DNA of 63,463 nucleotides, filler included, from Craspedostauros australis (lineage: Eukaryota): the NCBI GenBank assembly GCA_030167865.1. It is 9 parts of 9 records of this genome, joined end to end, with 100 filler letters (N's around TTAATTAATTAA, not from the genome) between each part and the next. Parts side by side here need not be neighbours in the genome. Positions count along the whole stretch, not along the records: positions 1 to 26,986 come from JALAGF010004393.1; 8 more parts are not named here. One strand, 5' to 3'. Numbering within the stretch: position 1 is the first letter of the stretch; every line of letters begins with the position of its first letter. This document shows, piece after piece, positions 4 to 57,383 of the stretch. The position numbers and the translations under genes are program-made. The notes under the pieces were generated by a model. It was not told the origin of the DNA. It made no database searches and saw only the letters and a list, made by a program, of their open reading frames with translations.

Positions 4-2070
4 ATGAAGACATCCATCACCAACACTATATGCCTCGTCGCACTCTTGCTGGCGACGCTCACATGGCACAACGCAGATGCTCGCGTCTTCAGTGCGGAGC
101 ATCACAGCCGTGACTCCCGCCGACGCGGAGTCCGCGGACAGCAAGACATCATCCGAGGTTCGCGCCGCGCCCAAGAATCGAGCAGCGGCAAGGGCGACAG
201 TGGAAAGGGAGATGATGGAAAAGGAGACGAAGGCAAGGGAGGGAAGGGCTACGACTGCTCCGGCAAGGGTGGAAAGGGAGGAAAGGGAGGCAAAGGCGGA
301 AAGGGAGATGATGGAAAAGGAGAAGACGGGAAGGGCGATGAAGGCAAGGGTGGAAAGGGTGGAAAGGGAGATGAAGATGAAGACGAGGACGAGGACTTTG
401 AGTGCATCTGTGACGAAGGCAAGGGCGGCAAGGGCGGCAAAGGAGGAAAAGGCGACGACGGCAAAGGCGGTAAGGGAGATGACGGCAAGGGCGGTAAGGG
501 AGATGACGGAGATGACAGCATCGATGGTAAGGGCGGCAAAGGTGATGAGGGCAAGGGTGGCAAGGGTGATGAGGGCAAGGGTGGCAGATCGTGCTGTTGC
601 TCTGAGCAACCCAGCAGCAGCCCAAGCAGCCCTCCGAGTCTCCAACCCAGCGAAATGCCATCCGTCGACCCAAACCGAATCCAAAAAGATCAACCAATCA
701 GTTTTGACTCCGCATCCGCAGAACCAACGGGAAATCCGACAGTGATTCCGACATCTGTTCCAACCTCCGTTCCCACCTTCCAGCCAACTCTGAAGCCCAC
801 ATCTGGACCGACATCTGGACCCACATCTGGACCCACATCTGCACCCACATCTGGACCCACATCGCAACCGACATCTCAACCGACATCGACGCCAACAGCC
901 AGTCCAACTATTCGTGACAGCTTCGGACCAACGATGGAACCAACCACCGATCCAACCGCGCAACCAACTTCCCAACCAACTTCGGGACCAACTTCGCAGC
1001 CAACTTCGCAGCCAACCGAAAGACCGACATCACAACCGACGTCAAACCCAACCTCGCAGCCAACAGCCAGTCCAACTATCCGCGATAGCTTCGGTCCCAC
1101 CATGGAACCGACCTCTAATCCAACCACAAATCCGACATCGCAACCGACGTCAAACCCAACCTCCCAACCAACATCGGCGCCAACATCGGCGCCAACAGCT
1201 AGCCCGACCATCCGCGAGAGCGTCGGACCCACAATGGATCCAACCGCAAATCCAACCGCGAACCCGACCTCGCAACCGACATCGGCACCAACAGGTAGTC
1301 CGACCATCCGCGAGAGCGTCGGACCCACAATGGATCCAACCGCAAATCCAACCGCGAACCCGACCTCGCAACCGACATCGGCACCAACAGCTAGCCCGAC
1401 CATCCGCGAGAGCGTCAGACCGACGGCTGGGCCAACTGTTCAGCCAACCACTGCCCCAAGCTCCCAACCAACAACGGCACCGACAGCCAGCCCAACTGTC
1501 CGCGACAGTTTCGAGCCCACGATGGACCCGACTGCTCAACCAACCGCAAACCCAACCGCGCAGCCAACCGCGCAGCCAACCACGCGGCCCTCCGGTCGTC
1601 CGAGCCTTCGACCAAGCTCGAATCCAACCTCGAATCCAACTTTGCAGCCAACCACAAGCCCCTCGTCCAACCCAACTTCAGGCCCAACATCGGATCCATC
1701 CTCTCAACCATCATCGGAGCCGAGCGTTGATCCGGACAGGAACCAGCCGGGCGGGCCACCAATTACATTCGGATCGGGCGATCCACCGACGAGCGCTCCC
1801 ACCGAGACAGTCACGCGCGAAACTCTCGATCCGACGCAGCCACTCCCAACGCGCATGCCTCCTTTGGTAGGCCACGATGACAGCAGCCCATTGCAGTGCG
1901 CTGGGGGATCCGGATGGCAGGACCAGTTCCCGGAGTACAAGCCATGCTATCAGGCCGATGACTGCACTGGAACCGACGATCCATTCAGCGGCAAGGTCGC
2001 GTGCTGTCTGAAGTCCTTCTGCTACTGCGCAGACTTCACGGACGTCTCCGAGTGCGTTCCGTACCCATAA
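4..2070 (+). CDS. Secreted Gly/Lys-rich, Pro-Thr-Ser (mucin-like) cell-surface protein with C-terminal 8-Cys domain (family member 1)
   Basis: 688-aa ORF. Hydrophobic signal peptide (…LVALLLATLTWHNADA|RVFS), Arg-rich pro-region, (GKG[G/D])n/acidic block and a CCC motif. A long PTxxPT region includes ~96-nt near-perfect repeats (ASPTIRESVGPTMDPTANPTANPTSQPTSAPT, ~1200-1420). C-terminal domain: C..GS.WQ..C..C..CCLKSFCYC..ECVP. Confidence 0.9.
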   Translation: MKTSITNTICLVALLLATLTWHNADARVFSAEHHSRDSRRRGVRGQQDIIRGSRRAQESSSGKGDSGKGDDGKGDEGKGGKGYDCSGKGGKGGKGGKGGKGDDGKGEDGKGDEGKGGKGGKGDEDEDEDEDFECICDEGKGGKGGKGGKGDDGKGGKGDDGKGGKGDDGDDSIDGKGGKGDEGKGGKGDEGKGGRSCCCSEQPSSSPSSPPSLQPSEMPSVDPNRIQKDQPISFDSASAEPTGNPTVIPTSVPTSVPTFQPTLKPTSGPTSGPTSGPTSAPTSGPTSQPTSQPTSTPTASPTIRDSFGPTMEPTTDPTAQPTSQPTSGPTSQPTSQPTERPTSQPTSNPTSQPTASPTIRDSFGPTMEPTSNPTTNPTSQPTSNPTSQPTSAPTSAPTASPTIRESVGPTMDPTANPTANPTSQPTSAPTGSPTIRESVGPTMDPTANPTANPTSQPTSAPTASPTIRESVRPTAGPTVQPTTAPSSQPTTAPTASPTVRDSFEPTMDPTAQPTANPTAQPTAQPTTRPSGRPSLRPSSNPTSNPTLQPTTSPSSNPTSGPTSDPSSQPSSEPSVDPDRNQPGGPPITFGSGDPPTSAPTETVTRETLDPTQPLPTRMPPLVGHDDSSPLQCAGGSGWQDQFPEYKPCYQADDCTGTDDPFSGKVACCLKSFCYCADFTDVSECVPYP

Positions 2071-3985
2071 GCCGCAGGCAATGTCGGCGCACCGATGCCG
2101 CCGTCCACGAACTCACTATCATGCCCAATCACTCTGGCTGCCATGCGAAGGTCATCTGTGGCGCGATTATTCACGCAGCCTGGATACCATCCCATGCACA
2201 GTCATCAATCTCGCTGAATGTAAAGTGATTCTCATTTGTGAGCATCTAGCACGTCGATGGCGCGGACCAGCATACTTCTTCGCTCGACTCTGCCCTCCCA
2301 GGCTCGTTCTATCCGAAGGCAGGAATGCCAGAGTTCAAACTATTCTGCATGATCGTGGATAAGAACGATGGAGGAGCAGCGGGGGCGCGAAGGAACAACA
2401 ATTGAAGAAATGATTGAACACATGAACACCCACTCAATGGATCAATGAATCAATGGATCAATGAATCAATGGATCAACCTTCGTCTCATCCCATAGCAGA
2501 CATGCCGCCCTCTTCCGGTGCGCTCCATCCCGCAATCCGCCTTCCAATCTGTACCAGTACATGCGCTACGTGCACAGCCTGTGTAACATAAAATACCATT
2601 ACATATTATTATATAATACGTGACATCTACATGCTCCGCTCATCAGTTATCCTGGCTGGCAAAGCATGTTGCTGTTATTGTTCTCGTTGTTGCAGATGTA
2701 GTCGAAGTCGCCTGTACTCCTGCACTCGTTGGTATAGATAATAGTGTGTCCATTGTGGGAACAGTGTCAGACAACAAAACGGCATTCAGATTCACCATCA
2801 ACATTCTGTTTTGCATTTATTGATCTGTATATGTATTTTGACATGACTTCCAACAATGGCGGGAAGACTTCGTGTTTCTTGTCGTGCACACGTCCCGCTT
2901 CTCCTTGCTTTCAATGTGCTTAGCGTTTCAATTTCCGATTCCCGCGTTGCAACAGACAGCTTTGGAAGAGTGAAATGGACAGCAAGGATGTTTCGCGTTT
3001 GTTTTTTTTGGCTTCTCCGTCCGTTACAGCATCACTGAAGCAATCCCGAGTTGTGCAGCACGACCCACTACCGTTATGCCAACGGTGTCACAATTATCTG
3101 GTCCTATCACAAAATTGGTTGGAACGGATGAATGCGCACCTCCGTGACGAACAACATGCAAAAATGGGGAGGTGGACACTGGTTCGCGAGTTTTGTTTAT
3201 AGTCAACCGTGTCGCATGTGACATATTTGTGTATTTGAGTCGTCTGTAGGACACTAAATAAACAAACAACGACCATACTCACAAGTCTGTTCTTATCCCT
3301 TCGGCCGAAAATCGCAGGGCGATTTTTGAAATGTCGGCGACGGGAATGGACTGGATAGCCCTACTTCGTTCCGATTGGGCAGGAGGAGCACGAACCCCCC
3401 AACGCTGCGAGCGTTTTAGCTCACATGTTGGTGTTGTCGTTGTCGTTGTTTGATTGTTTGTCGGGGGGTTAGTTTTGTCTGTTGGCCGAGGTGATGCCGA
3501 TGGATGTGGAAGCTGTTCACCTGTTGTTTCTCGCTTTGGTCTTGTGAGCGCCCAGCTAAGTGATGGACTATGCTTTCCCACGTTGATGTTCTGTCCCCGC
3601 ATCGCATGTGTGGGACCAGAGACATTGCGCCGCGCGACGATCGTTCTTGCGCATGGCAAGAGAGAAACCGGAGAAGTATTCGTCGACCGTACCGAAATGG
3701 GAAGCGTGTGTATTCGCATGGGACGTGGCATGGTGCCTGTGTGTATTGGCGGCACGCGAGATCACGCAACAACGCAGCACCACTCGTATTCCCCTTCAAC
3801 TCTTTCGCTCGTTTCGCAATCATTTTCAGACACAATCCTCATAACTCGAGCATCATTGCAATCGCTGCACCACCGTGGTCATACGCACACTCCATCACTT
3901 CATCACTTCATCACTCCAAGTGTATCAGCACTCATACACTCACCAATACACTCATTCACCAATACACACAAGTATAGCAGCAAAG

Positions 3986-5041
3986 ATGAGAGTATCAACA
4001 AACAGCATGATCTGCCTGATGGCACTGGTGGCTGCCACTGTCTCTCTGCAATCCGTGGAAGCTCGCGTGTTCAGCTCTGATTACCATGACCGCCGTTCGC
4101 GCAGCCGCGGAGTTCGAGGACAGGACCAAGAGGAAGACACAACGACGCGCCGCCTGAAGTCCGACGATGAAGGCAAAGGCAAAGGAGGCAAGGGCTACGA
4201 CGGCAACTCCACCTACGACTGCGATGACTTCGGCTTCGGCAAGGGCTACGGCAAGGGCAAGGGCAAGGGCAAGGGAGGCAAAGGCAAGGGAGGAAAGGGC
4301 GACGACGAGTCCGGCAAAGGAAAGGGCAAGGGTAAAGGCGAAGGAAAAGGCTACAACAGCACCATGGACGACGAGATGGCCTGTCTGTGCGTCGGTGAAG
4401 GCTACGGCAAAGGAGGCAAGGGCGGCAAAGGCAAGGGCGGAAAGGGCAAGGGTGGCAAGGGCGACAACAGCACCTACGCTGGAAAGGGCCACTACGGCAA
4501 GGGCTACGGCAACGAGACCTACGACGGCACCGGCCACTACGGAAAGGGCTACGGCAAGGGCAAAGGCAAGGGCGGCAAGGGAGACGACGAGTACTACCAT
4601 CCATGCTGCTGCGTCTCCGAAATGCCGACCGTCGATCCAGACCGCGATGAAGACGGCGGTCCGATCGATCCAAACACCGACACCCAGACACCAACCACCA
4701 TGCCAACCTCCGAACCCACTTCCGCACCCACTTCCGAACCAACCTCCGAACCAACGGAAACAACGTCCCCACCATCGGAGGAGAACGTGGACACCCTCGA
4801 TCCAACTCTGCCTCTTCCGACGCTCATGCCGCCGCTCTACGGACACGACGACTCGAGTCCTCTGCAGTGCGCGGCAGGATCCATGTGGCAGGCGATATCT
4901 CCAGAGTACAAGCCGTGCTTCGAGGCAGGCGACTGCGCGGGAGTGGATGATCCGGACACAGGCGCGATCTCGTGCTGCCTCAAGTCCTTCTGCTTCTGCG
5001 GTGGCTACGACATCCTCACCGAGTGTGTCCCAGCGGCCTAA
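3986..5041 (+). CDS. Secreted Gly/Lys/Tyr-rich cell-surface protein with short PTS linker and C-terminal 8-Cys domain (family member 2; paralog of 4..2070)
   Basis: ATG at 3986 follows a CA-rich leader. Signal peptide ends …SVEA|RVFS, followed by an RRL site and GKG/GKGY/GHYGKGY repeats. Shares ARVFS..RGVRGQ, CCC..SEMP.VDP.R and TLDPT.PLPT.MPPL.GHDDSSPLQC…CCLKSFC.C…ECVP with gene 4..2070. Confidence 0.9.
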   Translation: MRVSTNSMICLMALVAATVSLQSVEARVFSSDYHDRRSRSRGVRGQDQEEDTTTRRLKSDDEGKGKGGKGYDGNSTYDCDDFGFGKGYGKGKGKGKGGKGKGGKGDDESGKGKGKGKGEGKGYNSTMDDEMACLCVGEGYGKGGKGGKGKGGKGKGGKGDNSTYAGKGHYGKGYGNETYDGTGHYGKGYGKGKGKGGKGDDEYYHPCCCVSEMPTVDPDRDEDGGPIDPNTDTQTPTTMPTSEPTSAPTSEPTSEPTETTSPPSEENVDTLDPTLPLPTLMPPLYGHDDSSPLQCAAGSMWQAISPEYKPCFEAGDCAGVDDPDTGAISCCLKSFCFCGGYDILTECVPAA

Positions 5042-5939
5042 CTTCGCACACCCCAAGTTCGCACGACCGGCGTTCACGTGGCGTCCTTCATCGCAGTCGC
5101 GACTCAGGGAGGCCCAAGCAGTCTCGCCCTCGCGCGCAACAACACAAACAAGCACACAAACAAACAAACACGTACTCTGCGCGGCTCATCATGACACAAT
5201 GGCTCCATTCCGGAGTCCGGCATTCGTCAGCGCAGAGACTATCCACAGCTAAGATGCGCTTCCCCTCTTCCTCTTTCTCGCCATTCTTACATCGTCATCG
5301 CTATTGTCGTCACCATCGTCATCGCTACAGGGGCATGCGCCAATGTCCCGCAGCCTAACCAACAACCACCTTCACGCCAATGACACCCACGTACTATTAC
5401 ATGCACTTTTGCTAATTTCTTCTTGCGGAACGCACGCGTCCGCTTTGGAGAGAGTGTTGCCATGGTGTCATGGTGTTGTCGAGTGAAATGGGGTGGTCAA
5501 ACGGCGACGCAGCAGCATTGCCACTGACACTGGCAACAACACATGAGGCGATGAATGAAGGCGACGAGAGAGGCAGAAAGGGAATGCACAAGACGGCAAA
5601 CCTGAATGTACCGCGTCAGTGCGGTTGTATGGGGGAACACAATAGACCATCGCACCCTCGCCCTATATCATGTACCATAAATCTAGTCCAATACATCATC
5701 TCCAATCACTCTGCCAATGTGTGGTGACTCCTTTGCGCTTATCACGTTAGCATCCTGCCGCCTATGAGCTGCCGTGCTGTACGAGTGCGTACGGTGCGAC
5801 GTTGTATGGGAATGGCAACAGCATCTCTTGTGGTGCATTGGACGAATGATGGGAACAAGGAGAAGAGGGGGAGAATTGGATGGCCATCAGCGTACAACAT
5901 GCTATTGGCGCGACAAAAAAGGGGACATGTTACATTGCA

Positions 5940-5943
<4 letters not shown>

Positions 5944-5971
<28 letters not shown>
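5944..5971. repeat. (CT)n microsatellite
   Basis: Perfect CT dinucleotide run. Similar CT/GA runs occur at about 14791, 17407, 17738 and 19996. Confidence 0.9.
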
Positions 5972-5974
<3 letters not shown>

Positions 5975-7706
5975 TTCACATCTATTTCCACTTGCACTTG
6001 TACTTTCATTTCCACTTCCATTCCCAATCTCCATCGCACGACCACCACATTCGCAACCTTCCGCAACACATGAATGCACTCCAAAGCAGAGCTCTCTCCA
6101 AGTATTCCATTGTTGGTTTCTGCTTGGGAACGGTCAATCATGCCAAATACGGAAAGCTCCCTCCAGGATTCAACGAACGCAAACAGAAAGACAGACGTAA
6201 CCTCGGAGACCCATCTGCCCAAGGGGGACAACAGGCACCTGCTTTCTGCTCATCCTCGTGTTGCGCCATGCTTGGTGGGAGAACTGTTCTATCAGCATGC
6301 CGAGCGAGGAGCTCGTTGGTATAGTATTGGTGTGCACATGCATGCTGTCGGCACTTCATTCACATCGTGCTCACTCTGATCGGAGAAGGAACTTCACCTC
6401 GCTTTTCCGACAGCCATCCGATCCAAGTCCGATTGTGATATTGCGTTGCATGTGGGTTCAAAAGAGACAATCGCGGGAAAATGTGTGTCACGAAATAGGA
6501 CATGTGTTCGGCCTGCGTAACACATGGAATTTCGATATATTTCGTTGCATGTGATGTTGTCACACGTAGCCAAAGCGCGAACGCGAAGCGAGGCGGGAAG
6601 ACGTTGAACGAATGCGAACGGAAACAGACTCATTCAAAACCACAATGCGTGTGTTGACCGTGAATCTTTCTCTTCTTTTTCCCATGTTGTTGTTGCCACT
6701 TCCTGCCTCTCGAAGACTGATGGCAGAGGGCAAAAGCAGCGGCACAGGAGAGGATGGGTCGGCTGCATGTTTTCGAAATCGAATGGGTGAAGGTAGATGG
6801 AACATCAACACAAAGAGGCAGCGAGAGATGGTGAAAGATTCTGGCGCGGAGTGGTGTCATGCACACGCGGACTTCGGCAGGAAGTATTCGTATTCAAACC
6901 AAGGGAAGGGGGGAGAGAGATGGGGGTGACTATGGACATCTGATGCTGCACATCGGACTCCACATAATCCACCAACAAATCACGAACCAGCAACTGATGA
7001 GGGGCGACCTTTTGAATGGCAACTAACAGTTGAATCTTGCTCCCACCATCCAAAACTGAAGACTCTTCTTTCGCTGCTTCCGGATGTGCAAAAGTGGTCC
7101 TCTGCTTGATGGCATTATACCATACCATATCAGTGCCATAGATCGTACATCACGATTGATCTGCATCGCTGTCGCCTCGCTCCTGTTGCTCTCACTATTG
7201 GTATTCACTTCAGAGATCCCGCCGATCTGGTCCACATTCATCACAAGTTCCGTCACGCTAATCCCGATCGACGCATTGGCTTCGACATCGTGCCGACCAC
7301 ACCACAACACAACACTCCACTCCACGGTCCAAGATATCCTCCACGGCGCTCTCCACGATACCAATACTCTATCTGCTTGAACATCACGTTGGGATCGTGA
7401 TCTCACTTTCGAAGCACCGTGGCGCGCCACAAACATTAGCACAGGACTCGCAAGGGATACTGGCGGAGATATTGGTGGAGATAGTCTTGGAGATACCAAT
7501 CCACAACAAACAACCCTACCATACTCGTACCACACCTACGAGCAAGCACTTTCGAAGCGCGCCAAGATCAGAGCAGTTGGAACTGGACAGAGCAGTCGTA
7601 CTGGCATTTGGTAGTATTATAGTACATACCGTACGCCACCGACGAGGAGAGAGTGCAGAGTCCTCTGCTCTGTGAGTATCATACTCGTACGCACACGCTG
7701 TGAATC

Positions 7707-10700
7707 ATGGACTTCCTCTTTGGCAGGACAGCATCGCCAGCCCCAGCATCCACAACGACTCCCACAACGACCTCAGCCTTGGGTTACGATCGGACCAGAA
7801 CCAGTTCCACTTCAGCCATAAACTCAGATGGCAAGACAACAGCAAGAGCATCAACTTCAGCAACAGCATCATCACATTCGCAATCGAGAATAACACCAAC
7901 AACAACAACAACAAGAGGAAGAGGAAGAGAAAGGGAGTGGCGAACGCCCTCACACAGTACAGGCGCCACCTACCAATCGAGGTTTGACAGGGGCGAATCA
8001 AGGGCAAGCACAAGCACAAGCACCGGGAACGGTACTACCACGGGCATCGGACAAAGCATCGCCACAGGCCTTGCTCGATTCCAACAAGCAACCAGGCCGC
8101 TTCATCACCAACAGCAGCAGCACCAGCAGAACGAGTACGACGCAACGTTGCCATCTGCATCTCAGCCCGCTCTCGCATCCATATCTTCTGCACGAGCTTC
8201 ATCTTTCTCATACAACCCATCCAACCCATCCAACCCATACTCAGCGAGGGCATATTCGCACACGCAGAGCGCAGAACGCAGCACCACCTTGAGACCCTGG
8301 TCATCATCTATGAGTACGCGCAAACCGTCCGCATCTGACACTTCGCATACAACCATGGTGTCTTCTCTACCCACGCCTGCAACTGCATCAGCATCTGCAT
8401 CTGCATCCACCCCGGCGGCTACGAGTACATCAGCAGCCATGGCCACGAGCACGACCGCAACCACGACCACGGCTGTCTCTGTGTCCCAGAAGGACGACCT
8501 ATGCAGATCCGACACCGCCAGCAACAGCACGAGCGCCTCCCGGGGCCACCAATCCTTGCGTCTGCCTGCGCAAGAAATCAAGCTGCTGCGCTCCATCCTC
8601 ATGGATGAAAGCTACCTTTCCACCACCATGGACGATGACACCGTCGCGAACGCTTCCCACATCAGCATGGACAGCCTCCTCCCATCCAACATCAAGCCAG
8701 CAAGGGCCGAGCGCAAGTACGAGTACTTCCAGGACCTCCACAGTGAAGAGAAGAAGGAGACGGACCTCCCCGTGCCATCCATTCACGCCGGCAACAACAC
8801 GTCCATTCTCGCCATCAAGACCGACACTCCAACTGAGGAGTCCGGACACACTGCGTCGCCCACTCAATCGGAGTCTTCCGACAGTACCAGTACGAATGGG
8901 AAGTCCCATCGGGGTGCTTTTCCTGACAGCGCCACCTGCTCCACGGAGCACTTGCCACCAAGCCCACCCGACGAGCGCGAAGCAACCGACGTCCCGCCGT
9001 CCACGGCGTCCCTACCAGCACTAGCATCAGCACCAGCATCAAGCTTAGCCGCTGTTCCGCCTAGAGCCACCGACGGCGATGCTGACGGCAACAAGCCTGG
9101 CGCGGAACCGCCCGCTCCCGTCTCGTCCATTGGCGCATCGGCGAGATCCAAAATGAGACAGCTCGAGCAGACCTTTCTCGCCTTGCAGACACATGGAGCA
9201 ACGCTCATCTCGGCACCCTCTGCCTCCACCACCACTGCGAAGGCTCCATCTGCCGCAACACTCGAGCGTGTTCAGAGCGACGCGAGCGACAAGGCAGATG
9301 GCTTGACATGGCGCTTGGATAGCACCAGCATCTTTCGTGGTCTCAAGTCTCCTCCTGCGGTGGGTTCAACGACGATGGAATCATCGCTCATGGCACAGAT
9401 GCAGCGCACATCCTCCTCGATGTCATCGTCGAGGATCTTCGAGGATTCCACCACGTCCACCGAAGTCGACGCGGTGTCCATCAACGGACACGACAACGCG
9501 CACGGTGACGGCGCAAGCGTCAATGCGGCAGATTCCTCGTCTCAATCCGCCCCATCGCTGCTGACGCCCGCTTCCGTCGACTCCGCAACCGCTGACCTTC
9601 GTCGCGTTGCCGCGCTGGAACTGCTGGCCAAGGAAACCAGCCGAGGTTGGAACATCAACGGCCAGATGGCGCAGGTCGCCGATCAGAGGGTCCTGTCGCT
9701 GGCGGACGACGAAAGTGAAGGCGACTTCGATTTGCTTCTTGATCTCAGCCCTGGAAAGCACACCAGCGGTTTCGAGCCTGGCGATGCGGGCAACTCAAAA
9801 AGTGGCGCAGGCGGGAAAGCCCACAGGGGAAAAAAGACGCACGCGGATTCTTCGATTGGCATCACGCGGCTGATGGGGGCATCAGGACAGAAACCTGGAA
9901 ACGGCTCACAAACCACAAGCGCCACGGGCCATCCGAAGCGCCAAGACGCCACCATGGCCAACCGAAAGGCCCACAACAGCAGCGACCCTGGGACGCAGCC
10001 AGCGAAGCGCACGAGCACATTCGGCGACAACAACAACAAGAGCAGCCATAGCAATAACGGCAACAGCAGCAGCAGCCCTGCGACCTCACCGAAGAACAAC
10101 CTTCTGGTCGCACCGCTCGCACCTGGTGAATCCAGCGGCGATGATGACAACCACAGCAACATGAATGGCAACAACATGGACACCAGCAATGCGATCAACA
10201 CTGACGATGACATCGAAGCCAACCGCAACGGCAGCAACAATGGCAACAACGGCAACAACAGTCGCAGAAAGAACGGCAGCAACAATGGCAACAACGGCCC
10301 GATGAAAAAGGCCTTCAACAAGGGCTCGACAAGCCATCACTTCGAGATCACGAGCGAATCCAGCAGCGACAACGCCTCCTCATTTGTCTACAGAACCCCG
10401 TCCAACGACATGGGCAGCCTGGACGATCGCAGCGGCAGCGGCTCCGCGCGAAGACAGACCCTGCTGCCACGTTCCCAACATCGATCCGATGCCCTGGCAC
10501 CGCTGACAGACGATCCGCTGATCCTCCGCATGCCAAACACCGCGTTTGGAATCAGCATGGGGTTGGCTGGCAACGCCCTCCTCTGGAAGACGGTCGTGCA
10601 GGCTGACTTCCTCGTGGGGGGTGAGAGCGACAACGGAGAGCTCGCCGTGTTCCGCAAGGACAACATCGAGTTGGCCAACACCATCATGTGGTTTGCTGCC

Positions 10701-12029
10701 TTTGTGTCGGGCGTCATGATCACTCTGGCCTATCTCTACAAGTGCCTCTTCCATCCCGACTTCTTCTGGCTGGAATGGCGATCGTCGACGCGCATCCACT
10801 TTTGCAACGGCCCCAACCTGGCCATGCTCATGCTCACGCTCTCCATCCCCGACGCCGTGCAATCCAGCAACCAAGCCTACGTCACCGTGTTCTCGATCGG
10901 CCTGGTGTACCAGGTGATCATGACCCAGGTCGTGTATTCCCAATGGATGTTTGGCGCGGATCGATCTGGCGATGCTTCTTCGAACATGATGGACGACAGC
11001 ATGGGGCACGACAATCGCACCGAACTGCCGCTCACATCTGCAGCTGGCGCCTCCAAGAGCCCAAGCGGTGGCGACGCAGAAGGATCGCAGCTGACTTGCG
11101 CGCAGCCTCAGTTCTTTCTCTCCATCGTGGGTTGGTTCCTTCTGTCCGTCTTGGCGGTGCAGGCGGACATTGAGGGACAGTGGGGCATACCGATGGCGAG
11201 CTTCTGTCTTGGGATTGGAACGATCTTTGCCCTCATGCTTCTCATCTCCGTCTTCCAGGGCCTCTACCAGCACGCGGGCCTTCGAGGTAGCCCAGCTCTG
11301 ACGCTCATGATTGCGATTCCAAGCCTTGCTGTCGTTGCGCTGCATGGCATCGAAAACGGCACGCTGAGCCTGGACGTGATCGACGCGCCCGAAACTTCGT
11401 CGTCGAATGGCGATGTGAACATGGCATCGACGAGCGCGTCGTTCGACTTTGGCGAAGACGACAATGAAGCCGCCAAACAAGGCGTCGTGAGGGGTGAGTT
11501 TCCGCTGGCGGGCGAGCTTCTCCTGGGCTGGTGCTGCTTCATGGTGCTGCTGCTGTTGAAGCTGGGGCCGAAGATTTGCCAAAACCCATCGACCTTTGGT
11601 GCGTACTGGGCGTACGTGTTCCCTCTGAGCTCGCTGGCTTCGGCGCTGACCCGTTACGCCGTCGTGATGGACACGAGAGCAACACACGTGATGGCTGGTG
11701 CTTCCATCGGCATCGCCACGATGGCAGTGATGATTGTGTTCTTGAGGATGTTCTGGCACCTGCTGTTGACTTCGTTCACAGAACGCTACACCTGGGCAGA
11801 TCCACTCTTGAATCTGCCTTCCGACCTTGCGACGAGCACAGGATCCGACTGGACGCTCGCGGAAGAGGAGGTGGCAGCGAGAACGGAACGAATGCACATG
11901 CAGAGTCGCTCGGCAGGACTTGACATCCACCCCACCTCGACAACCAGCGGGACCATGACGAGAGCATCACCATCGCCTTCGTCGGCAGCGTCGTCTCCCA
12001 ACCGAACGGCCTCTCGCACGGGTGCGTAA
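7707..12029 (+). CDS. SLAC1/TehA (TDT) family anion channel with a ~930-aa low-complexity N-terminal extension
   Basis: The C-terminal ~450 aa hold about 10 hydrophobic segments. LRMPNTAFGISMGLAGNALLWK resembles SLAC1 TM1 (RFPIGCFGICLGL), EW…RIHF…P resembles the conserved TM2-TM3 loop, and FGAYWAYVFPL resembles SLAC1 WWSYTFP with the gate Phe. The N-terminus is S/T/A/N-rich. Confidence 0.85.
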   Translation: MDFLFGRTASPAPASTTTPTTTSALGYDRTRTSSTSAINSDGKTTARASTSATASSHSQSRITPTTTTTRGRGREREWRTPSHSTGATYQSRFDRGESRASTSTSTGNGTTTGIGQSIATGLARFQQATRPLHHQQQQHQQNEYDATLPSASQPALASISSARASSFSYNPSNPSNPYSARAYSHTQSAERSTTLRPWSSSMSTRKPSASDTSHTTMVSSLPTPATASASASASTPAATSTSAAMATSTTATTTTAVSVSQKDDLCRSDTASNSTSASRGHQSLRLPAQEIKLLRSILMDESYLSTTMDDDTVANASHISMDSLLPSNIKPARAERKYEYFQDLHSEEKKETDLPVPSIHAGNNTSILAIKTDTPTEESGHTASPTQSESSDSTSTNGKSHRGAFPDSATCSTEHLPPSPPDEREATDVPPSTASLPALASAPASSLAAVPPRATDGDADGNKPGAEPPAPVSSIGASARSKMRQLEQTFLALQTHGATLISAPSASTTTAKAPSAATLERVQSDASDKADGLTWRLDSTSIFRGLKSPPAVGSTTMESSLMAQMQRTSSSMSSSRIFEDSTTSTEVDAVSINGHDNAHGDGASVNAADSSSQSAPSLLTPASVDSATADLRRVAALELLAKETSRGWNINGQMAQVADQRVLSLADDESEGDFDLLLDLSPGKHTSGFEPGDAGNSKSGAGGKAHRGKKTHADSSIGITRLMGASGQKPGNGSQTTSATGHPKRQDATMANRKAHNSSDPGTQPAKRTSTFGDNNNKSSHSNNGNSSSSPATSPKNNLLVAPLAPGESSGDDDNHSNMNGNNMDTSNAINTDDDIEANRNGSNNGNNGNNSRRKNGSNNGNNGPMKKAFNKGSTSHHFEITSESSSDNASSFVYRTPSNDMGSLDDRSGSGSARRQTLLPRSQHRSDALAPLTDDPLILRMPNTAFGISMGLAGNALLWKTVVQADFLVGGESDNGELAVFRKDNIELANTIMWFAAFVSGVMITLAYLYKCLFHPDFFWLEWRSSTRIHFCNGPNLAMLMLTLSIPDAVQSSNQAYVTVFSIGLVYQVIMTQVVYSQWMFGADRSGDASSNMMDDSMGHDNRTELPLTSAAGASKSPSGGDAEGSQLTCAQPQFFLSIVGWFLLSVLAVQADIEGQWGIPMASFCLGIGTIFALMLLISVFQGLYQHAGLRGSPALTLMIAIPSLAVVALHGIENGTLSLDVIDAPETSSSNGDVNMASTSASFDFGEDDNEAAKQGVVRGEFPLAGELLLGWCCFMVLLLLKLGPKICQNPSTFGAYWAYVFPLSSLASALTRYAVVMDTRATHVMAGASIGIATMAVMIVFLRMFWHLLLTSFTERYTWADPLLNLPSDLATSTGSDWTLAEEEVAARTERMHMQSRSAGLDIHPTSTTSGTMTRASPSPSSAASSPNRTASRTGA

Positions 12030-12473
12030 AATGCACGCAGCCATGCCGAATTTGCAAACCATAAGAAGACGGATACGGAGGCACTGAGCAGTAACCAGGG
12101 GAATGGTGATGCAACATGTCCATCTGTAGTAGAACGAGTGCATGGGGACGGTGGCAGATTCGGCGGCGACGTCGTCACGAGAAATACTGGATCATCGTCC
12201 AGAGGAGCACGGCAACAAGTACGGGTACGTTCGAGTATTGTAATAGTGGCCATGAACTAAACACAAAACAGCAAGCTATTATGCGTTTATAGTAGAATAT
12301 CACACTCGCGAATGTATTGGCAAGACGAGCGCGATGTTGCCGCTGCGCATGTGATTGTTGACGCGTCGCAAAGCTGTGTTCATGATGTCCTCATCCATGT
12401 CCCATTGAGGTGGTGGTGGCGTCACACGGAGTCGCGAATGTCACCTCCAACAGGAACCGGAGGTGGTGAAGAC

Positions 12474-12638
12474 TGTCAGTATCGTGAGGGTGATAGTGTG
12501 ATGCTATGATGTTATACTGTGTGTAGGATGAGGATCGGAGAGGATTATGAGGACAGGAGACGGATGGCTCTGTGTCTCCTCCTGTGTGAGGGCCTTGCGG
12601 ACCGTCTGTCCTTCGTCAGGCCCATGGGTATGCCAACA
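12474..12638 (-). mobile_element. Solo LTR (165 bp) of an LTR retrotransposon with 5-bp target-site duplication
   Basis: Begins TGTCAGTAT and ends ATGCCAACA (TG…CA, imperfect inverted termini). AAGAC flanks both sides (12469-12473 and 12639-12643). A diverged second copy lies at 51243-51412; strand is inferred from that copy. Confidence 0.85.
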
Positions 12639-14631
12639 AAGACAAGAAGAGGACGAAAGGGAGATGACATGCACGATGCGAACTCTTTTCTTGGAGACAC
12701 AGCATCCGTGACGGACAGGGCAGGATGCGTCCTGGTTTGGTCTTGCATCTGCTACTCCGTTGGGTGTAGGGGTAGAGAGAGAGGAAGGATGCGCGCACCA
12801 GTACCCGCGCTCGCGCCAGAGTCTGAGAATCGTGATGTGGGCGATCCCGTTTCGGATCTTGGGATCATGATATCACGAAGGACAAGCTGCGTTGATGTGT
12901 GTCTCGCCTCTTCTCATTGTCTTTCTCTTTGCCGAAGTGAGCCAATGTGAAGAACGATGATGTTGGTGTGTCACACATCCTGGCTCTGTGACATTGCTTT
13001 GCGAAGCGTTCACCTGAGACACTTTTCGAGTGTCCATGTTCAGGTGACGTCCAGGCCGCGTCATGGTTACTATGTGGTGGCTATGCTGTGGCTGTGTGGT
13101 GGCCACCAATACTATTACTATTCTCGGTATGCACTTGTGGCTCGTAGAGTACGTTGCTATCGTGCAACGGTGATCTCACCGCCGGCAAAGCCACGCATGG
13201 GAAGCAGAGAGCACGAGAGGCAGACGCTTTGAAGTACTACGACTATGCGATAGATAGTGCTCTGCGCCGCATACCATCCAACAGTAGCGGCAACACACTG
13301 CCACAAGGGTCTTCTCCGCTTCCAACCGCTCCAAGGCCACCCCGGTTCTGCGGAACAGAACGCATCAGTCAAGTGGAACACAAGCCATCCATCGATTCAC
13401 AGCGGCCAACAATCCTGTACCCGGGTCGTATCTGGTGGTGCCGTAGCATCTGTGGTCGTGACTTGCACGAGCCACCAATACACGAACCTGCGATGCGGCC
13501 TCTCGCCATACGCGTACAAGCATGGTACAGCGGATGGCTTCGTTTCGATGAGAGTGGCAAGACATCACGAACCCACCAGACAACACCATGGGCACCACAA
13601 GATTGCGCCGCAAGGGAAGAAGCCTGTGCACAGAGAAGAAGGAGGAGCAGAATGCACCATCGCTTGTGCTTGGCTGATGCCTGGCGCAACCAGAAGAGGG
13701 ACAGATTGAACACTTTTTGGCGTTCTCGGACACCGTTGAGCGTGTGGAAAAAATCATATTCAAGTCACGGATGCTCGAGAACAGAGTTTGAAAAATTAGA
13801 CGTCATTATTGGGGATCGCTTGACGTCATCTGTCATACGAAAAGGTGGAGTATGCTGTTGTGTGGCATGTCCCACAGCGAGACAGACTCATTTGTGACAC
13901 AGAAGCGACTTGATACTTACATACCGCAAGAGTCATTGACGCCGTTCAGTTTGGCGAAAAACCGATTCTCGCCAAAGTTGCGTGCGAACAGATGCCAAGT
14001 GGCGCTTCGAAGTGTTATTTGGACACGTTTCCCACGTCCCGATCCCCGCTGAAAACGAACAAATGGGCAGTCACGAGCGTGTGTGCTTGGATATTTAGCG
14101 GATTCGTGTGTGAGGCAGTTACGGAGTGGGGAGATGAAAATTCTTGTTTGTGTGTTTGGTTCTTGTGGGCATCGGCATGTGGGCGGAGGTGCCATTGGAA
14201 AATGACATGACACTTGGTCGTGGACGGAGTTGGCTGGTTATTGCAACGTGAGCGAGTCGGTTGAAGGGCAGGATGTCAGCAGAGGTGCAACTTGCGCGCT
14301 CAGTGCAGGTGGCGGCGACCAAGCAAGATGAGTCTGTGCTCAAGAGGGGATTCTGGCAGTCGTGTGGGGCGCAGCGCCTTGTTGCTGTGCAGCCATGTGG
14401 TTGTGTGGGTCGCTGTTTGGTGATGATGAATGTCTGCAGTTCACCACCCTTTTGCGTTCCCTCTCTGTTCTGTGGCGCTTGGTTTTCTCAACATCGTCGG
14501 CACTCACGCCACTCACACCGTCGTCATACATCGCGCACCATCCACATCGTTCACACAGATCAAAACACACAATAGAGCGCTTGGCATCAACCGAATTGTC
14601 CACACAAACCAGTCTGCCACCACCACTCCCT

Positions 14632-15584
14632 CCAGCATCTGCCACCGATCGCTCAAAGCACAACAGCTCGCATCACATCAAAGAACATCAAAGCACGCCA
14701 CAGCGAAGTGGAAATAGAACCAAGACACTTTCCAGTCCATCACTGCACAGAGCACTCACAAGTCGTACGAACACTTCTGCCATCGATAGCGAGAGAGAGA
14801 GAGAGAGTGTGTGTGTATCAGCATCATACGGTCTACTCGTGCCAAAGCATTATTCATCCCCAAACACAGTCCAAACACAACCCAACTCATTCCCAGTCTC
14901 CATTCTCATAAAAATAAAACCCAGCACAATCCAATCGAAGACATCAGCACATCAACAGCACAGGTGAGGACACAATGAACATGGTAAACCATGCAAGGAC
15001 ATGACTGTGCGCAAGGTCACCTGTTTGTTGCTTCCGACCTTTACGGCCTTGCCCGCTCTTCCGAGTCCGCCATGATGAGCTGCCACCACTATCGCCGCTA
15101 TCATCACTGCACCAATTGCCTGCTGCCACTATTGTCGCCACTATTGCCGCCACTTCGTTGTTGATGGTAAATGCGGGATTTGAACCTCTCCCTTGAACGG
15201 AGCGCGGTAAATCGGGTCTCTGTCTTTCACTTCCGTTTGCACACCAACTTGAAGGAACAGATCATGCAGGAATAGACGATGCAGGAACAACAACGACAAC
15301 AATCGTCCACTCATCACTTCTTCCGGAACGTCCCTCGTTTCTGCCGCTTCTGCTCTTTCCGCTTCTCCTTCATCTGTCCACTTCACTCCCATCGTCTGCG
15401 ATGCGCTGCCACGTGCACTTTCTTCAACTCTCTATTGGAACTCTTCACATTGGTGCCGCACCAATACCATGCGCAATTGTACACGCTGCTATTATTCCTA
15501 TGCTTCCATTTGCCGTGTCCAATTGCCACTTTACAATTGCCACATCTCATAATATCAGCTCTCACAATAAGCAAAGGCAACAAC

Positions 15585-15616
<32 letters not shown>

Positions 15617-17735
15617 CAACAACAGCCATGGCATTCACCATCAGCTCTTCGGCATTCAAGCTGGCTCTCATCGTCGCCACTCTGTCAGCCTCCGGATGGG
15701 CTCCATTCGCGCCACAGCGAGTACTGGCACAGCCCCAGATCCGCAAGCGCATCGGACGCTTCGGAGACTTGGAACCTGCCGCGAATTCCAAAGATGGATC
15801 TGCCAACAACGTTGACACAAACAACGAAGACAATGCTGCCGCTAATACTGCTGCTGATGATGAAGATCAAAATGATGACGAAGACGATGAAGACATGTTC
15901 GTGATGCCAAGGAGGCGCTACATCAAGGGCGACAAGGGCGGCTCCTCCAACATCAACCAACTGCTCCACGTGCCATGCGTGGACTTCGACCATCCAGAGG
16001 TGCAGGCTGCCAAGAACATGACCGCCACCGATGCTCTCTGCCTCACTAACTCCTGCGACGAAGGCTGCTGCCGTTACCACTCCTCCGGCCTCTACTGCGA
16101 CACCTCCTTCACGTTCCCTTACACGGCTTGCGTCTGCAACGCCAACACTGACCGTGAAGCCAACGTCACGGTCCCCATTGATATTGGGCCCATCGCTCCA
16201 ACTCCCGTCCCCTCCGCGATGCCAAGCGCAGCGCCCGTCACTCCGGCTCCCATCCTGGGCTCAAACACGCCCGACGCCGATGTCTGCCTTGAAGGATCCT
16301 TCTTCCAGGACGATACCACGCACAACTGCGATCAGGCATCGGCCTGCAACGGGGTCACCATTGGCGGCAAGGTCACTTGCTGCTTGAGGGTCTTCTGCTT
16401 CTGTGAGACCTTCGACGACTTCGACAACGAGTGCGTCCCATTCCCATAAGCGCCCGGATCAAAGCACCGGCCAGAGCTTTTGCCGTTAAAGTACAACCAG
16501 GTACATCCAAGTACATTCAAAAGCAAGCACACAAAGGGGAAGAGGGGTGGACCACCAGCGTTAACGCGATTTGTCATTCGCACACTGTACCAACATGCAT
16601 ATCCAAAGATCCAATGGAACCACCTTCAGGAGGCAGCGACAGCGTCAGCGCATGTATCGCAACCGGCGCTCACATGCTGTGCTCAACGGGCCGATCGAAC
16701 CATGTACCGTATTCTAATACATTGCAATACGTCGGAGCAATACGCTCTGCAGCACTAGAGAGAGAGAGAGTAACCGTACGTTGTACGCTATTAATACAAA
16801 CTACAATTACATCTACATTTGAACAGAGTAGACGAGAGCAAAGTAGAGCACAGCATGGCATAGCAGAGTATCAATTGAAGCCTCATCCGCGAAGCGATGC
16901 CCTCAGCATTCGCGACCTCTCTTTCGCAGCACATCCCAGAGCATGACCGAAGTATTTCGTATAATATAATATCATATCATATCATATCATATCATAGAAT
17001 GCTTTGGCTACACCTAACAGTACACGTCATACGATTCAATTGTTCGTCTTTGATAACAATGTCGAAAGGAAAGCATGCGAAAGGATCGTGCAAGATCCAG
17101 AGTGCAACAGCGCACGAACTGCATTCAAACCGACCACTATCAACCAAGAGTAGTTGGGCAGTGCAGCACACCCACGACACGAATGCAATCGTTTGTGCGT
17201 GACACACGAAGGTTGGATTCTTCGCCTTCGGCAGAATCTCGCACATGTTGTTGCGATCTCCGCTGTTCGCTGTTCCCACCGCTGATGTCACTGCTGATGC
17301 CATTGTCGCATTCTCATCCTTTCTTGCGTCTGCGAGGGCATTCCCACGACATTCTCCTTCATCGTATTGCTTGAAGTGGATGCTGATGCAGGTGTTTGCG
17401 GTGCCAGAGAGAGAGAGAGAGAAAGAGAGAGAGAGCGTGGCTGATTCGCATCCGATGCCGCCTCCCTCTCTGGTTTGGACACTTTGTTGTAAGACGGTTG
17501 CATTGCTCATGATTCAACACGCGCCGTAATTGGACACAGAAGACGCGCCAGAACACGCAACCACCCGAACTGTGCCTATCACACGAAACTGAACATTGGC
17601 ATGTCATGTCAAACATGCACAAGTAACCCCAGCTGCTTCCTTCATCCTCGTCCTCGTATTGGTAACTTGTGTTGACAATCGCACTACATTCTCCGTACTA
17701 TATCGAGCACAGCGCCACTATATTCCATTGTCACG

Positions 17736-17773
<38 letters not shown>

Positions 17774-17820
17774 GAGAGAATATTCAAAACTCCAATGAAC
17801 CAACCAAGGACAGCAGCACC
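14632..17820 (+). repeat. Tandem segmental duplication, unit 1 (~3.2 kb)
   Basis: Aligns by eye over its whole length with 17821-21147 (starts CCAGCATCTGCCACCGA…, ends …CCAATGAACCAACCAAGGACAGCA), including non-coding flanks, with scattered substitutions and indels. Confidence 0.9.
15628..16449 (+). CDS. Secreted two-Cys-domain protein with the shared C-terminal 8-Cys domain (family member 3)
   Basis: 273 aa: signal peptide, acidic pro-region, RRR site, KGDKGG. An 8-Cys module (C..CLTNSCDEGCCR..C..CVCNANT) is followed by a PTS linker and C..GSFFQ..C..C..CCLRVFCFC..ECVP. Confidence 0.88.
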   Translation: MAFTISSSAFKLALIVATLSASGWAPFAPQRVLAQPQIRKRIGRFGDLEPAANSKDGSANNVDTNNEDNAAANTAADDEDQNDDEDDEDMFVMPRRRYIKGDKGGSSNINQLLHVPCVDFDHPEVQAAKNMTATDALCLTNSCDEGCCRYHSSGLYCDTSFTFPYTACVCNANTDREANVTVPIDIGPIAPTPVPSAMPSAAPVTPAPILGSNTPDADVCLEGSFFQDDTTHNCDQASACNGVTIGGKVTCCLRVFCFCETFDDFDNECVPFP

Positions 17821-18820
17821 ACCAGCATCTGCCACCGACCGCACCAAAGCACAACACCTCACACCAAACAACATCAAAGCACGACACGGTGAAGTGGAGA
17901 TAAAGCTAAGACATTTTCCAGTCCATCACTGCACAGAATACTCGCAAGTCGTACGAACACTTGTGCCATCGATAGCGAGAGAGAGTGTGTGTGTATCAGC
18001 ATCATGCGATCGACTCGTGCCATAGCATCATACATCCCCAAACACAGCCCAACTCATTCCCACTCTCCATTCTCATAAAAATAAACCCAGCGCAATCCAA
18101 TCGAAGACAACACACAGCAGCACATCAACAGCACAGGTGAGGACACAATGAACATGGCAAACCATGCAAGGACATGACTGTGCGCAAGGCCACCTGTTTG
18201 TTGCTTCCGACCTTTACGGCCTTGCCCGTTCTTCCGAGTCCACCATGATGAGCTGCCACCACTATCGCCGCTATCATCACTGCACCAATTGCCTGCTGCC
18301 ACTTCATTGTTGATGGTAAATACGGGATTTGAACCTCTCCTTGAACGGAGCGCGGTAAATCGGGTCTCTGTCTTTCACTTCCGTTTCCACATCAACAACT
18401 TGAAGGAACAGATGATGATGCAGGAACAGATGATGGCAGGAATAACATCAGCAATCGTCCACTCGTCACTTCTTCCGGAACGTCCCTCGTTTCTACCGCT
18501 TCTGCTCTTTCCGCTTCTCCTTCTTCCGCTTCTCCTTCATCTGTCCACTTCATTCCCATCTCCCGGGATGCACTGCCAAGTGCACTTTCTTCAACTCTCT
18601 ATTGGAACTCTTCACATTGGTGCCATACCAATCCCATGCGCAATCGTAACCAATCGTGCACAATCGTACGCAATCGTACACGTTCTACTATTATACCTAA
18701 GCTTCCATTTGCCATGTCCAATTGCCACTTTCCAATTGCCACATCGCACCTCACACCTCGCACATCGCACATCTCATAATATCAGCTCTCGCAATAAGCA
18801 AAGGCAACAACAACACCACC

Positions 18821-18851
<31 letters not shown>

Positions 18852-21147
18852 GCCATGGCATTCACCATCAGGTCCTCGGCATTCAAGCTGGCTCTCATCG
18901 TCGCCACTTTGTCAGCCTCCGGATGGGCTCCATTCGCGCCACAGGGAGTACTGGCACAGCCCCAGATCCGCAAGCGCGTCGGACGCTTCGGAGACTTGGA
19001 ACATGCCACGAATTCCAAAGATGGATCTGCCAACAACGTTGACACAAACGACGAAGACGATGAAGACAATGCTGCCGCTGATGCTGCTGATCAAGCTAAC
19101 AATGATGACGAAGACGACGAGGAAATGTTCGTGATGCCAAGGAGGCGCTACGCCAAGAGCGGCAAGGGCGGCGACTCCAACATCAACAAACTGCTCCACT
19201 TTCCATGCGTGGACTTCGAACATCCAGAGGTGCAGGCTGCCAAGGACATGCCCGACACCGATGCTCTCTGCCTCACTAACTCCTGCGACGACGGCTGTTG
19301 CCGTTACCACTCCTCCGGCCTCTTCTGCGACACCTCCTTCCGGTTCCCTTACGCCGCCTGCGTCTGCAACGCCAACACTGACCGTGAAGCCAACATCACC
19401 ATCCCCATTGATTTTACCATCGATCCAACTCTCGCCCCCTCCACCGTACCGCCCACCACTCCAACTCCTATCGTCGGCTCAGACACGCCCGACACCGATA
19501 TCTGCCTTGAAGGATCCTTCTTCCAGGACGAGACCACGCACAACTGCGATCAGGCATCGGCCTGCCAGGGGGTCACCATCGGCGGCAGAGTCACTTGCTG
19601 CTTGAGGGTCTTCTGCTTCTGCGAGACCTTCGACGACTTCGACAACGAGTGCGTCCCATTCGCATAAGCGCCCAGGTCAAAGCACCAGCCAGCGCTTTTG
19701 CCGTTAAAGTACATCCAAGTACATCCAAATACAACCAGGTACATCCAAGTACATGCAAAAGCAGGCACACAAAAGGGGAAGAGGGGTGGACCGCCAGCGT
19801 TAACGCGATTTGTCATTCGCACACTGTACCAACATGCATATCCAAAGATCCAACGCAACCACCATCAGGAGGCAGCGACAGCGTCAGCGCATGTATCGCA
19901 GCCGGCGCTCGCATGCTGTGCTCAACGGGCCGGTCGAACCATGTACCGTATTCTAATACATTGCAATACGTCGGAGCAATACGCTCTGCAGCACTAGAGA
20001 GAGAGAGAGAGAGAGAGAGAGTAACCGTACGTTGTACGCTATAAATACAAACTACAATTACATCTACATTTGAACAGAGTTGACGAGGGCAAAGTGGAGC
20101 ATGACACAGCAGAGTATCTACTGAGCCCAGCACCATTCGCATCAATTTGGCAAGATTGCAAGACAAGATGCGATCGTGTATTGTGTTGTCGATGCGAACA
20201 TCCACAGCCAACACCACCAAGAGAAGCCTCATCTGCGAAGCGATGCCCTCAGCATTCGCGACCTCTCTCTCGCAGCACATACCAGAGCACGACCGAAGTA
20301 TTTCGTATAATAGAATATCATATCATAGAATAGAATGCTTTGGCTACACCTAACAGTACACGTCATACGATTCAATCGTTCGTCTTTGATAGCAATGTCG
20401 AAAGGGTAGCATGCGAAAGGATCGTGCAAGATTCAGAGTGCAACAGCGCACGAATTGCATCCAAACCGACGACTATCAACCAAGAGTAGTTGGGCAGTGC
20501 AGCACACCCACGACACGAATGCATTCGTTTATGCGTGACACAGGAAGGTTGGATTCTTCGCCTTCGGCAGAATCTCGCACATGTTGTTGCGATCGCTGCT
20601 GTTCGCTGTTCCCACCGCTGATGTCACTGCTGATGCCATTGTTGCATTCTCATCCTTTCTTGCATCTGCGAGGGCATTCCCACGACATTCTCCTTCACCG
20701 TATTGCTTGAAGTGGATGCTGATGCAGGTGTTTGCGATGCCAGAGAGTGGCCCAATGCCAGAACTATTCGCATCCGATGCCGCCTCCCACTCTGGTTTGT
20801 GCGCTTTGTCGTGAGACGGTTGCATTGCTCATGATTCAACACGCGCCGTAATTGGACACAGAAGACGCGCCAGAACACGCAACCACCCGAACTGTGCCCT
20901 ATCACACGAAAATGAGCATTGACATGTCGCAGATACAGACGAGCGCCTCGACTAATGCCGACCCTCGCCAGCTGCTTCCTTCATCATCCTCATCCTCGTA
21001 TTGGTAACTTGTGTTAACAATCGCGCTACATTCTCCGTACTATATCGAGCACAGCGCCACTATATAGTATTCCATTGTCACGCTCCTCTCTCTCTCTCTC
21101 TCTCTGTGTGTGGAGAGAATGTTCAAACCTCCAATGAACCAACCAAG
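17821..21147 (+). repeat. Tandem segmental duplication, unit 2 (~3.3 kb)
   Basis: Direct repeat of 14632-17820; contains ~100 extra bp at about 20120-20220 that unit 1 lacks. Confidence 0.9.
18855..19667 (+). CDS. Secreted two-Cys-domain protein (family member 4; tandem paralog of 15628..16449)
   Basis: 270 aa. All 16 Cys are conserved with 15628..16449; differences concentrate in the acidic pro-region and PTS linker. Confidence 0.88.
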   Translation: MAFTIRSSAFKLALIVATLSASGWAPFAPQGVLAQPQIRKRVGRFGDLEHATNSKDGSANNVDTNDEDDEDNAAADAADQANNDDEDDEEMFVMPRRRYAKSGKGGDSNINKLLHFPCVDFEHPEVQAAKDMPDTDALCLTNSCDDGCCRYHSSGLFCDTSFRFPYAACVCNANTDREANITIPIDFTIDPTLAPSTVPPTTPTPIVGSDTPDTDICLEGSFFQDETTHNCDQASACQGVTIGGRVTCCLRVFCFCETFDDFDNECVPFA

Positions 21148-57283: not shown

Positions 57284-57383
57284 NNNNNNNNNNNNNNNNN
57301 NNNNNNNNNNNNNNNNNNNNNNNNNNNTTAATTAATTAANNNNNNNNNNNNNNNNNNNNNNNNNNNNNNNNNNNNNNNNNNNN

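Follow-up and report, generated by a model that had tools for sequence, protein, structure and literature searches.

Among described diatom proteins, those closest in design to the family considered here are the silaffin-like (KXXK) proteins and cingulins of Thalassiosira pseudonana, which combine a leader with repeated K[SG][SG]K motifs, a pentalysine cluster, and Pro/Thr (PT) repeats (PMC5501833, PMC4557024, PMC9650480), and AC3362 of the raphid diatom Amphora coffeaeformis, which was found in the insoluble matrix of the biosilica rather than in adhesive trails (PMC4220933). The present work concerns a 63,463-nucleotide stretch of joined sequence from the diatom Craspedostauros australis (the window), in which four genes, numbered 1 to 4, encode proteins ending in a shared domain with eight Cys, termed domain B. 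The family divides into two subfamilies that are predicted to be secreted: the GK-B proteins (genes 0, 1, 2, and C1688/C885, the first and last lying outside the window), in which B follows a Gly/Lys tract and a Pro/Thr stalk, and the A-B proteins (genes 3 and 4), which consist of a leader, a different eight-Cys domain A, a presumably flexible linker of 38–95 residues, and B. With a probability of about 0.5, the GK-B proteins are anchored in the biosilica matrix by silaffin-like lysine tracts, and their stalk presents B as a head for binding.

Judged by their motifs, the GK-B proteins are silaffin-like, but they are not silaffins proper. Genes 1 and 2 carry the strict pentalysine pattern, as do the two pieces of C1688/C885, and the N-terminus of gene 0 is identical to that of gene 1; the pattern is found in neither gene 3 nor gene 4 and in 0/26 stored homolog records. 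Repeated K[SG][SG]K motifs lying 1–6 residues apart, as in a published screen (PMC5501833), are likewise present in genes 1 and 2, C1688, and C885, and absent from genes 3 and 4; they occur in 0/21 outside homologs. Genes 3 and 4 differ from the silaffin-like proteins in lacking lysine clusters. In published work a pentalysine cluster marks 27 (29%) of 92 silica-associated proteins against a background of 1.5% (10.1101/2021.09.18.460806), and 14 proteins with repeated KXXK carry PT repeats (PMC5501833). The pentalysine pattern, the KXXK screen, and the precedent of AC3362 are the grounds on which the anchor is assigned to the lysine tract and B is treated as the displayed head.

The likeness has limits in both reference systems. 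A putative RXL cleavage site, as in the T. pseudonana silaffin-like proteins, is present in gene 2 and C1688, with RRAQ in its place in gene 1. The T. pseudonana proteins are described as Ser-rich random coils with one or no Cys, whereas the GK-B proteins are Gly-rich and Ser-poor with a folded 8-Cys head; the tracts of genes 1 and 2 contain 6/137 and 5/149 Ser residues, and each protein has 15 Cys. AC3362 resembles the GK-B proteins in its leader, an acidic pro-region ending in RXL (RAL), KG repeats with Tyr, a Pro/Thr stalk, and a small Cys domain that opens C-x5-C-xn-CC (PMC4220933). It differs in that this Cys domain is internal, the stalk is rich in Lys/Tyr, and the terminal domain is of another kind. 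The features of the four genes are as follows.

4..2070 (+): gene 1, 688 aa, with a leader, an RRAQ putative processing site, a Gly/Lys/Asp tract, a Pro/Thr/Ser stalk, and domain B
181..600 (+): gene 1, Gly/Lys/Asp polyampholyte tract with six Cys (C, CxC, CCC), net −8
265..303 (+): gene 1, pentalysine cluster at aa 88-100, fitting the published regular expression
601..1887 (+): gene 1, stalk of 429 aa, 59% Pro/Thr/Ser, Pfam PT repeat E 2e-50
1897..2055 (+): gene 1, domain B from first to eighth Cys
3986..5041 (+): gene 2, 351 aa, with a leader, an RRL (RXL) site at aa 55, a Gly/Lys/Tyr tract, a short stalk, and domain B
4157..4612 (+): gene 2, Gly/Lys/Tyr tract with six Cys (C, CxC, CCC), net +10
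4409-4444 (+): gene 2, pentalysine cluster
4613..4858 (+): gene 2, stalk of 82 aa, 51% Pro/Thr/Ser
4868..5026 (+): gene 2, domain B
14629..21163 (+): tandem duplication of a ~3.2 kb unit with genes 3 and 4; copies 14629-17824 and 17819-21163
15628..16449 (+): gene 3, 273 aa, with a leader, an acidic pro-region, one KxxK, domain A, a linker, and domain B
15976..16137 (+): gene 3, domain A, 8 Cys, unrelated to B
16285..16434 (+): gene 3, domain B
18855..19667 (+): gene 4, 270 aa, layout as in gene 3
19206..19367 (+): gene 4, domain A
19503..19652 (+): gene 4, domain B

All four open reading frames (ORFs) are uninterrupted and lie on the + strand of one contig (G000:C4393, positions 1-26986 of the window; the remainder is other sequence joined by N runs), in agreement with the sequence-only reading from which this work started. 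That reading had proposed a common 8-Cys C-terminus, and alignment bears this out with eight invariant Cys plus GS, Q, CCL, FCxC, and ECVP; the motifs of its consensus hold, save that 6 or 8 residues, instead of 5 or 8, separate Q from the second Cys. A B-type pattern matches four times in the six frames of the window versus 0 in 100 base-shuffled copies. The description of the first two upstream modules as Gly/Lys polycations is correct for gene 2 (net +10, 13 Tyr) and wrong for gene 1, where aa 60-196 hold 28 K + 1 R versus 37 D/E, so of these two tracts only that of gene 2 is cationic. Both share six Cys in the order C, CxC, CCC, separated by charged loops of ~50–70 residues, and these are candidate cross-linking sites. 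The same cysteines occur in the tract of gene 0 and are absent from that of C1688. A genome search with the CxC-to-CCC tract of gene 2 gave no match beyond gene 2 itself.

A hydrophobic N-terminal stretch is present in genes 1–4 (Kyte-Doolittle hydropathy 2.2–3.0 over 11 aa), and secretion of their products is inferred from it. Past the leader the maximum 19-residue hydropathy is 1.2 in these four proteins versus 3.1 in a membrane protein encoded on contig C1266, and a hydropathy scan found no C-terminal transmembrane helix in the B proteins. A modular diatom family, predicted to be secreted as first envisaged, is upheld, and a role in the cell wall is plausible. The second 8-Cys domain noted in genes 3 and 4 is also real, and it is unrelated to B. 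These two genes share 85–89% DNA identity, intergenic sequence included, and 222/276 aligned residues of their proteins are identical; as tandem duplicates they are not independent cases. The leader of both contains a stretch that we take to resemble the diatom ASAFAP motif. Plastid targeting was considered for these two genes and is disfavoured, as 16 Cys and N-glycosylation sequons favour secretion and a later site between Ala and Gln fits the Gln start of 7/21 homologs. No RNA run with a match to the locus was listed, and the one sequencing run that has a match spans intergenic DNA and so has no bearing on transcription.

Among the stored proteins, domain B follows the pattern C-x(13-23)-C-x5-C-x(5-13)-CC-x4-C-x-C-x(mostly 9)-C (24 matches) and domain A the pattern C-x(18-20)-C-x(4-5)-C-x(2-5)-CC-x(8-10)-C-x10-C-x-C (15 matches). 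In B the eight Cys are invariant, five aromatic columns are kept in 22–25 of 25–26 rows, and a GSxWQ segment is conserved. These aromatics and the GSxWQ segment would suit a binding surface or a small core alike. The domain is net acidic in this genome (−5 to −7), and a tail of 8–19 residues follows its CxC in most members. An origin of A and B by internal duplication was tried and rejected (hhalign probability 0.4% and 0.3%). At E 0.1, Pfam gives no match in A or B among 27 aligned sequences, and neither domain reaches any Pfam cut-off, which leaves both unassigned, as the sequence-only reading had stated for B. The best score against WAP (PF00095) is that of the outside homolog P0003 (17.8 bits, E 0.0042), below the gathering score of 20.8, with no match at E 0.1 in the 27 other rows. 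Sequence searches of the PDB were empty apart from one chance match at E 0.52.

The models of gene 4 domains A and B have a predicted local distance difference test (pLDDT) score of 87.5 and 81.9, respectively, and B forms a compact single domain. The even, invariant set of eight Cys together with this compact model fits internal disulfides. B is probably a ~50-residue fold with four internal disulfides and, on the model, a knottin-like core. Seven of the eight Foldseek rows for B are squash-type knottins at a non-significant E of 3–8. A VIA structure search ranked the squash knottin EETI-II best (Z 2.1, root-mean-square deviation (rmsd) 2.0, 28 aligned, model residues 15-49), followed by the Ascaris carboxypeptidase inhibitor (Z 2.0, rmsd 3.8, 40 aligned), neither being significant. 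Squash knottins and the WAP core share the arrangement C-x5-C-xn-CC-x4-C with B, but B differs from squash knottins in having two more Cys, longer loops, and no conserved inhibitory residue. The likeness is a weak lead, which does not amount to membership. For domain A, no VIA match reached Z >= 2 among 48,161 chains, which does not establish a new fold, and Foldseek returned four rows at E >= 6.8.

Other Cys-rich diatom proteins are more distant. Frustulins resemble the B proteins in being secreted, with acidic, Cys-rich (ACR) domains of ~50 aa and Pro- or Gly-rich linkers, but they have many ACR repeats where the B proteins have one or two unlike domains. The ACR hexapeptides CQGDCD and VPGCSG (PMC4712521; the E variant follows the sequence-only reading) occur in 0/28 sequences, which agrees with the earlier exclusion of frustulins. 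Silicanin/SiMat7-like proteins share eight conserved Cys, a leader, and an RXL site; unlike the B proteins they span the membrane as type I proteins, have 18 Cys, and carry an NQ-rich domain of 341 aa (PMC5525289). The N+Q content of the B proteins is 2–10%, short of the NQ-rich character of silicanins. CaFAP1, the Trailins, and Ca5609 of C. australis are likewise secreted, PTS (Pro/Thr/Ser)-rich, and modular, with undescribed Cys-rich units (10.1101/2023.03.06.531300); the published descriptions give the repeats of CaTrailin3, CaTrailin4, and Ca5609 six Cys, in contrast to the eight of B. Literature searches, including the family motifs as strings, returned no description of A or B, with CaFAP1, adhesive-proteome work, and preprint supplements outside their coverage.

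A HMMER search with the four C-termini against 1.84 billion representatives gave 22 matches at E <= 0.001, one of them gene 4. The 21 outside homologs comprise 15 with the order leader-A-linker-B, three with a truncated A plus B, and three others: P0003 with four tandem B domains, P0011 with a different N-terminal part and a stalk, and one fragment. P0003 looks secreted and has Pro-rich linkers between its B domains, in addition to its weak WAP similarity. Sources were looked up for 20 of the 21: one is a transcriptome protein of Stauroneis constricta, a member of a raphid genus, and 19 are environmental or assembly records. The layout of genes 3 and 4 is, by domain order, the widespread form (15/21 homologs), with a taxon named for one only; the sequence-only reading had not recognised this, nor that the Gly/Lys form is the local one. 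The combination of Gly/Lys tract, Pro/Thr stalk, and B was seen only in this genome among the homologs found.

In a tree of 25 B domains and 60 columns, from which P0003 and a 43 aa fragment were left out, the four GK-B domains form one clade with support of 97/98, apart from genes 3 and 4 plus Stauroneis. The clade is kept at 94/88 after removal of two long branches. Most of the other branches could not be resolved, and the data neither show nor reject that the six B copies of the genome are monophyletic (p-AU 0.40). As the prevalent layout, A-B is read as the older one, although an unrooted tree does not prove ancestry. Word-based homolog searches returned gene 4 alone, and two ESM Atlas queries gave no usable match, which shows neither novelty nor absence. 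Scans of metagenome DNA gave 0/189 candidates for B and 1/83 for A, the latter an off-frame match that runs across the end of an unrelated ORF, apparently of bacterial origin. Prokaryote genomes gave 2/91 candidates, both short off-frame matches within other ORFs, and viral contigs 0/169.

The sequence-only reading had taken the family to be a cluster of four. The cluster is present, but protein searches find six B domains in the genome, a lower bound to which a search with an outside homolog added no locus. Gene 0 is the immediate upstream neighbour of gene 1. Its contig, C5173, has an N-terminal 821 bp identical to that of gene 1, and the end of C5173 overlaps reversed C4392 by 84 bp, which in turn overlaps the window start by 821 bp. 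The simplest gene order would be a silicon transporter on the opposite strand, gene 0, gene 1, and gene 2, resting on overlaps within a repeat. The sixth B gene ends at C885:2679 with an open 5' end. Its N-terminal half is likely C1688:3381-end (L048:3381-5603, +); the contigs share a repeat unit, albeit with no exact overlap. This piece encodes 741 aa with 126 Lys, no Cys, a leader with the shared end ADARV, and an RSL site; its Gly/Lys/Asp/Ser tract follows a Gln/His-rich pro-region and has seven strict pentalysine matches. Domain A occurs without B on C1266, in a predicted type I membrane protein (L018:1726-3630, −). This protein has domain A, a PT stalk, a further, unassigned luminal domain, an RRL site, a transmembrane helix, and a tail.

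In the favoured reading, a single event would have placed B behind a silaffin-like Gly/Lys tract and Pro/Thr stalk, giving rise to the GK-B proteins. These would enter the endoplasmic reticulum by way of the leader and lose a pro-piece at the RXL-type site. The lysine clusters, whose motif is present here and whose function is extrapolated from other diatoms, would target the protein to the organic matrix of the biosilica and fix it there. A stalk of variable length, presumably O-glycosylated given its composition, would then extend B, which may bind a glycan or protein partner as its conserved aromatics and tandem repetition suggest. The A-B proteins would correspond to a form with two heads and no tether.

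Several observations weigh against this account. In genes 1 and 2 the tracts are rich in Gly with hardly any Ser, whereas silaffins are described as requiring phosphoserines beside the lysines for their targeting (PMC4557024), and the targeting data all derive from a centric diatom. In gene 1, RRAQ stands where a true RXL would be expected. With six Cys and another spacing in its Cys domain, AC3362 is an analogy and not a homolog. The aromatics of B may be structural. The 5' part of a silicon transporter gene (L024:1-525, −, on G000:C5173) stands head to head with gene 0, 1,290 bp apart, but this is a weak, post-hoc hint because PF03842 has 92 six-frame matches genome-wide and a pentalysine match accompanies 0/10 of the best transporter loci (~1.5 kb flanks examined). 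About 10 of the 92 are near full length, many are fragments at contig ends, and several have internal stops. The matches may represent a transporter expansion of unusual size (on transporter expansion, PMC9054022) or, in part, redundancy of the assembly.

PTS-rich proteins with Cys repeats also typify adhesive trails, and the trail proteins of Craspedostauros are modular with undescribed Cys repeats (10.1101/2023.03.06.531300), which raises the prospect that the family is a mucin-like raphe adhesive or mucilage. The glycosylated stalk would then be extensible, the zwitterionic Gly/Lys/Asp(/Tyr) tract would coacervate or stick, and B would serve as a small interaction head. The stalks are indeed 51–59% Pro/Thr/Ser, and the sole named homolog comes from a raphid genus. 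However, the GDPH string occurs in 0/28 sequences and the family sequences show no Pfam match to a CAA or vWA domain, the KG-repeat protein of Amphora went to the wall and not to trails, and pentalysine clusters are enriched in silica proteomes. An adhesive role is on balance unlikely. The original proposal, in which B cross-links or anchors, fares worse and is decidedly unlikely. Mucin C-terminal cystine knots provide the model: B-B or B-A pairing would polymerise the family, and GK-B would tie A-B chains to silica. The C-terminal position of B in nearly all members and the pairing of A and B in 15/21 homologs would suit this, and some silica proteins without targeting signals are proposed to travel with partners having them (10.1101/2021.09.18.460806). 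Yet the Cys set of B is even and invariant with no spare thiol in a confident single-chain model, and the wall-targeting pentalysine signal sits instead in the N-terminal Gly/Lys tract. The candidate cross-linking Cys are also located there, in genes 0–2, and are missing from C1688. A without B on C1266, and B without A elsewhere, show that the two are not obligate partners. As judged from sequence and model, B as a cross-linker or anchor finds no support in this analysis.

An inhibitory or defensive function for B, and perhaps A, is very improbable. Wall-tethered copies would keep bacterial proteases from attacking the frustule's organic coat, which fits reports that proteases speed frustule dissolution. 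The squash-type Foldseek rows, the two inhibitors found by VIA, and the weak WAP match of P0003 all point the same way, but every match is non-significant (E >= 3, Z <= 2.1, WAP 17.8 bits under 20.8) and the loop before the second Cys (columns 15-19) has no conserved Lys/Arg. Most PDB entries with a small disulfide fold are inhibitors or toxins, so matches of this type are expected. A broader version of the silica-anchored display reading can be put forward tentatively, with considerable doubt. In one lineage, the knottin-like head of a conserved, undescribed two-headed diatom protein (A-B) would have been transferred to a silaffin-like anchor, producing a natural surface display with the lysine tract in silica, a stalk tunable from about 80 to over 600 residues, and a head that binds a ligand or blocks proteases. 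A-B proteins in soluble form could use it to dock on the wall, or on cells bearing A on the C1266 membrane protein, and the array, head to head with the silicon transporter gene, may share its regulation.

One gene of another kind interrupts the cluster, and it encodes ~940 residues of low-complexity sequence ahead of the channel domain.

7707-12029 (+): SLAC1-family anion channel gene (E 7.7e-24), inside the cluster between genes 2 and 3

Elsewhere in the window, an 873 aa ORF (51528-54149, −) combines a hydrophobic leader with PT stretches and with short GxxAC-type Cys/Gly repeats arranged in two blocks; GxxAC-like motifs are reported in silica-associated proteins. A 242 aa ORF (48223-48951, +) carries a hydrophobic leader and a small Cys-rich peptide between two RRLQ sites. 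By eye, several ORFs with zinc-knuckle, protease-like, and integrase-like stretches (55340-61644, +) look like retrotransposon pieces on separate joined contigs, and a light-harvesting-type ORF with a plastid leader (36473-37102, +) is broken by an N run.

Taken together, A and B are a real pair of small diatom Cys domains with no catalogue entry and no description in the literature searched; in this lineage a silaffin-like anchor seems to have acquired one of them as a graft. Proteins of this general type are well known; what seems new is the head and its graft. If B is merely another lineage-restricted Cys module on a mucin-like protein, the family would be an ordinary addition to a long list. 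The two tractable ~50-residue domains and the natural series of stalk lengths may be useful for display work. Known silica-targeting proteins are, with few exceptions, disordered and from centric diatoms. A lysine-cluster anchor joined to a folded, conserved head would, if true, show how diatoms may functionalise the wall surface, and that such a protein can originate by domain shuffling.

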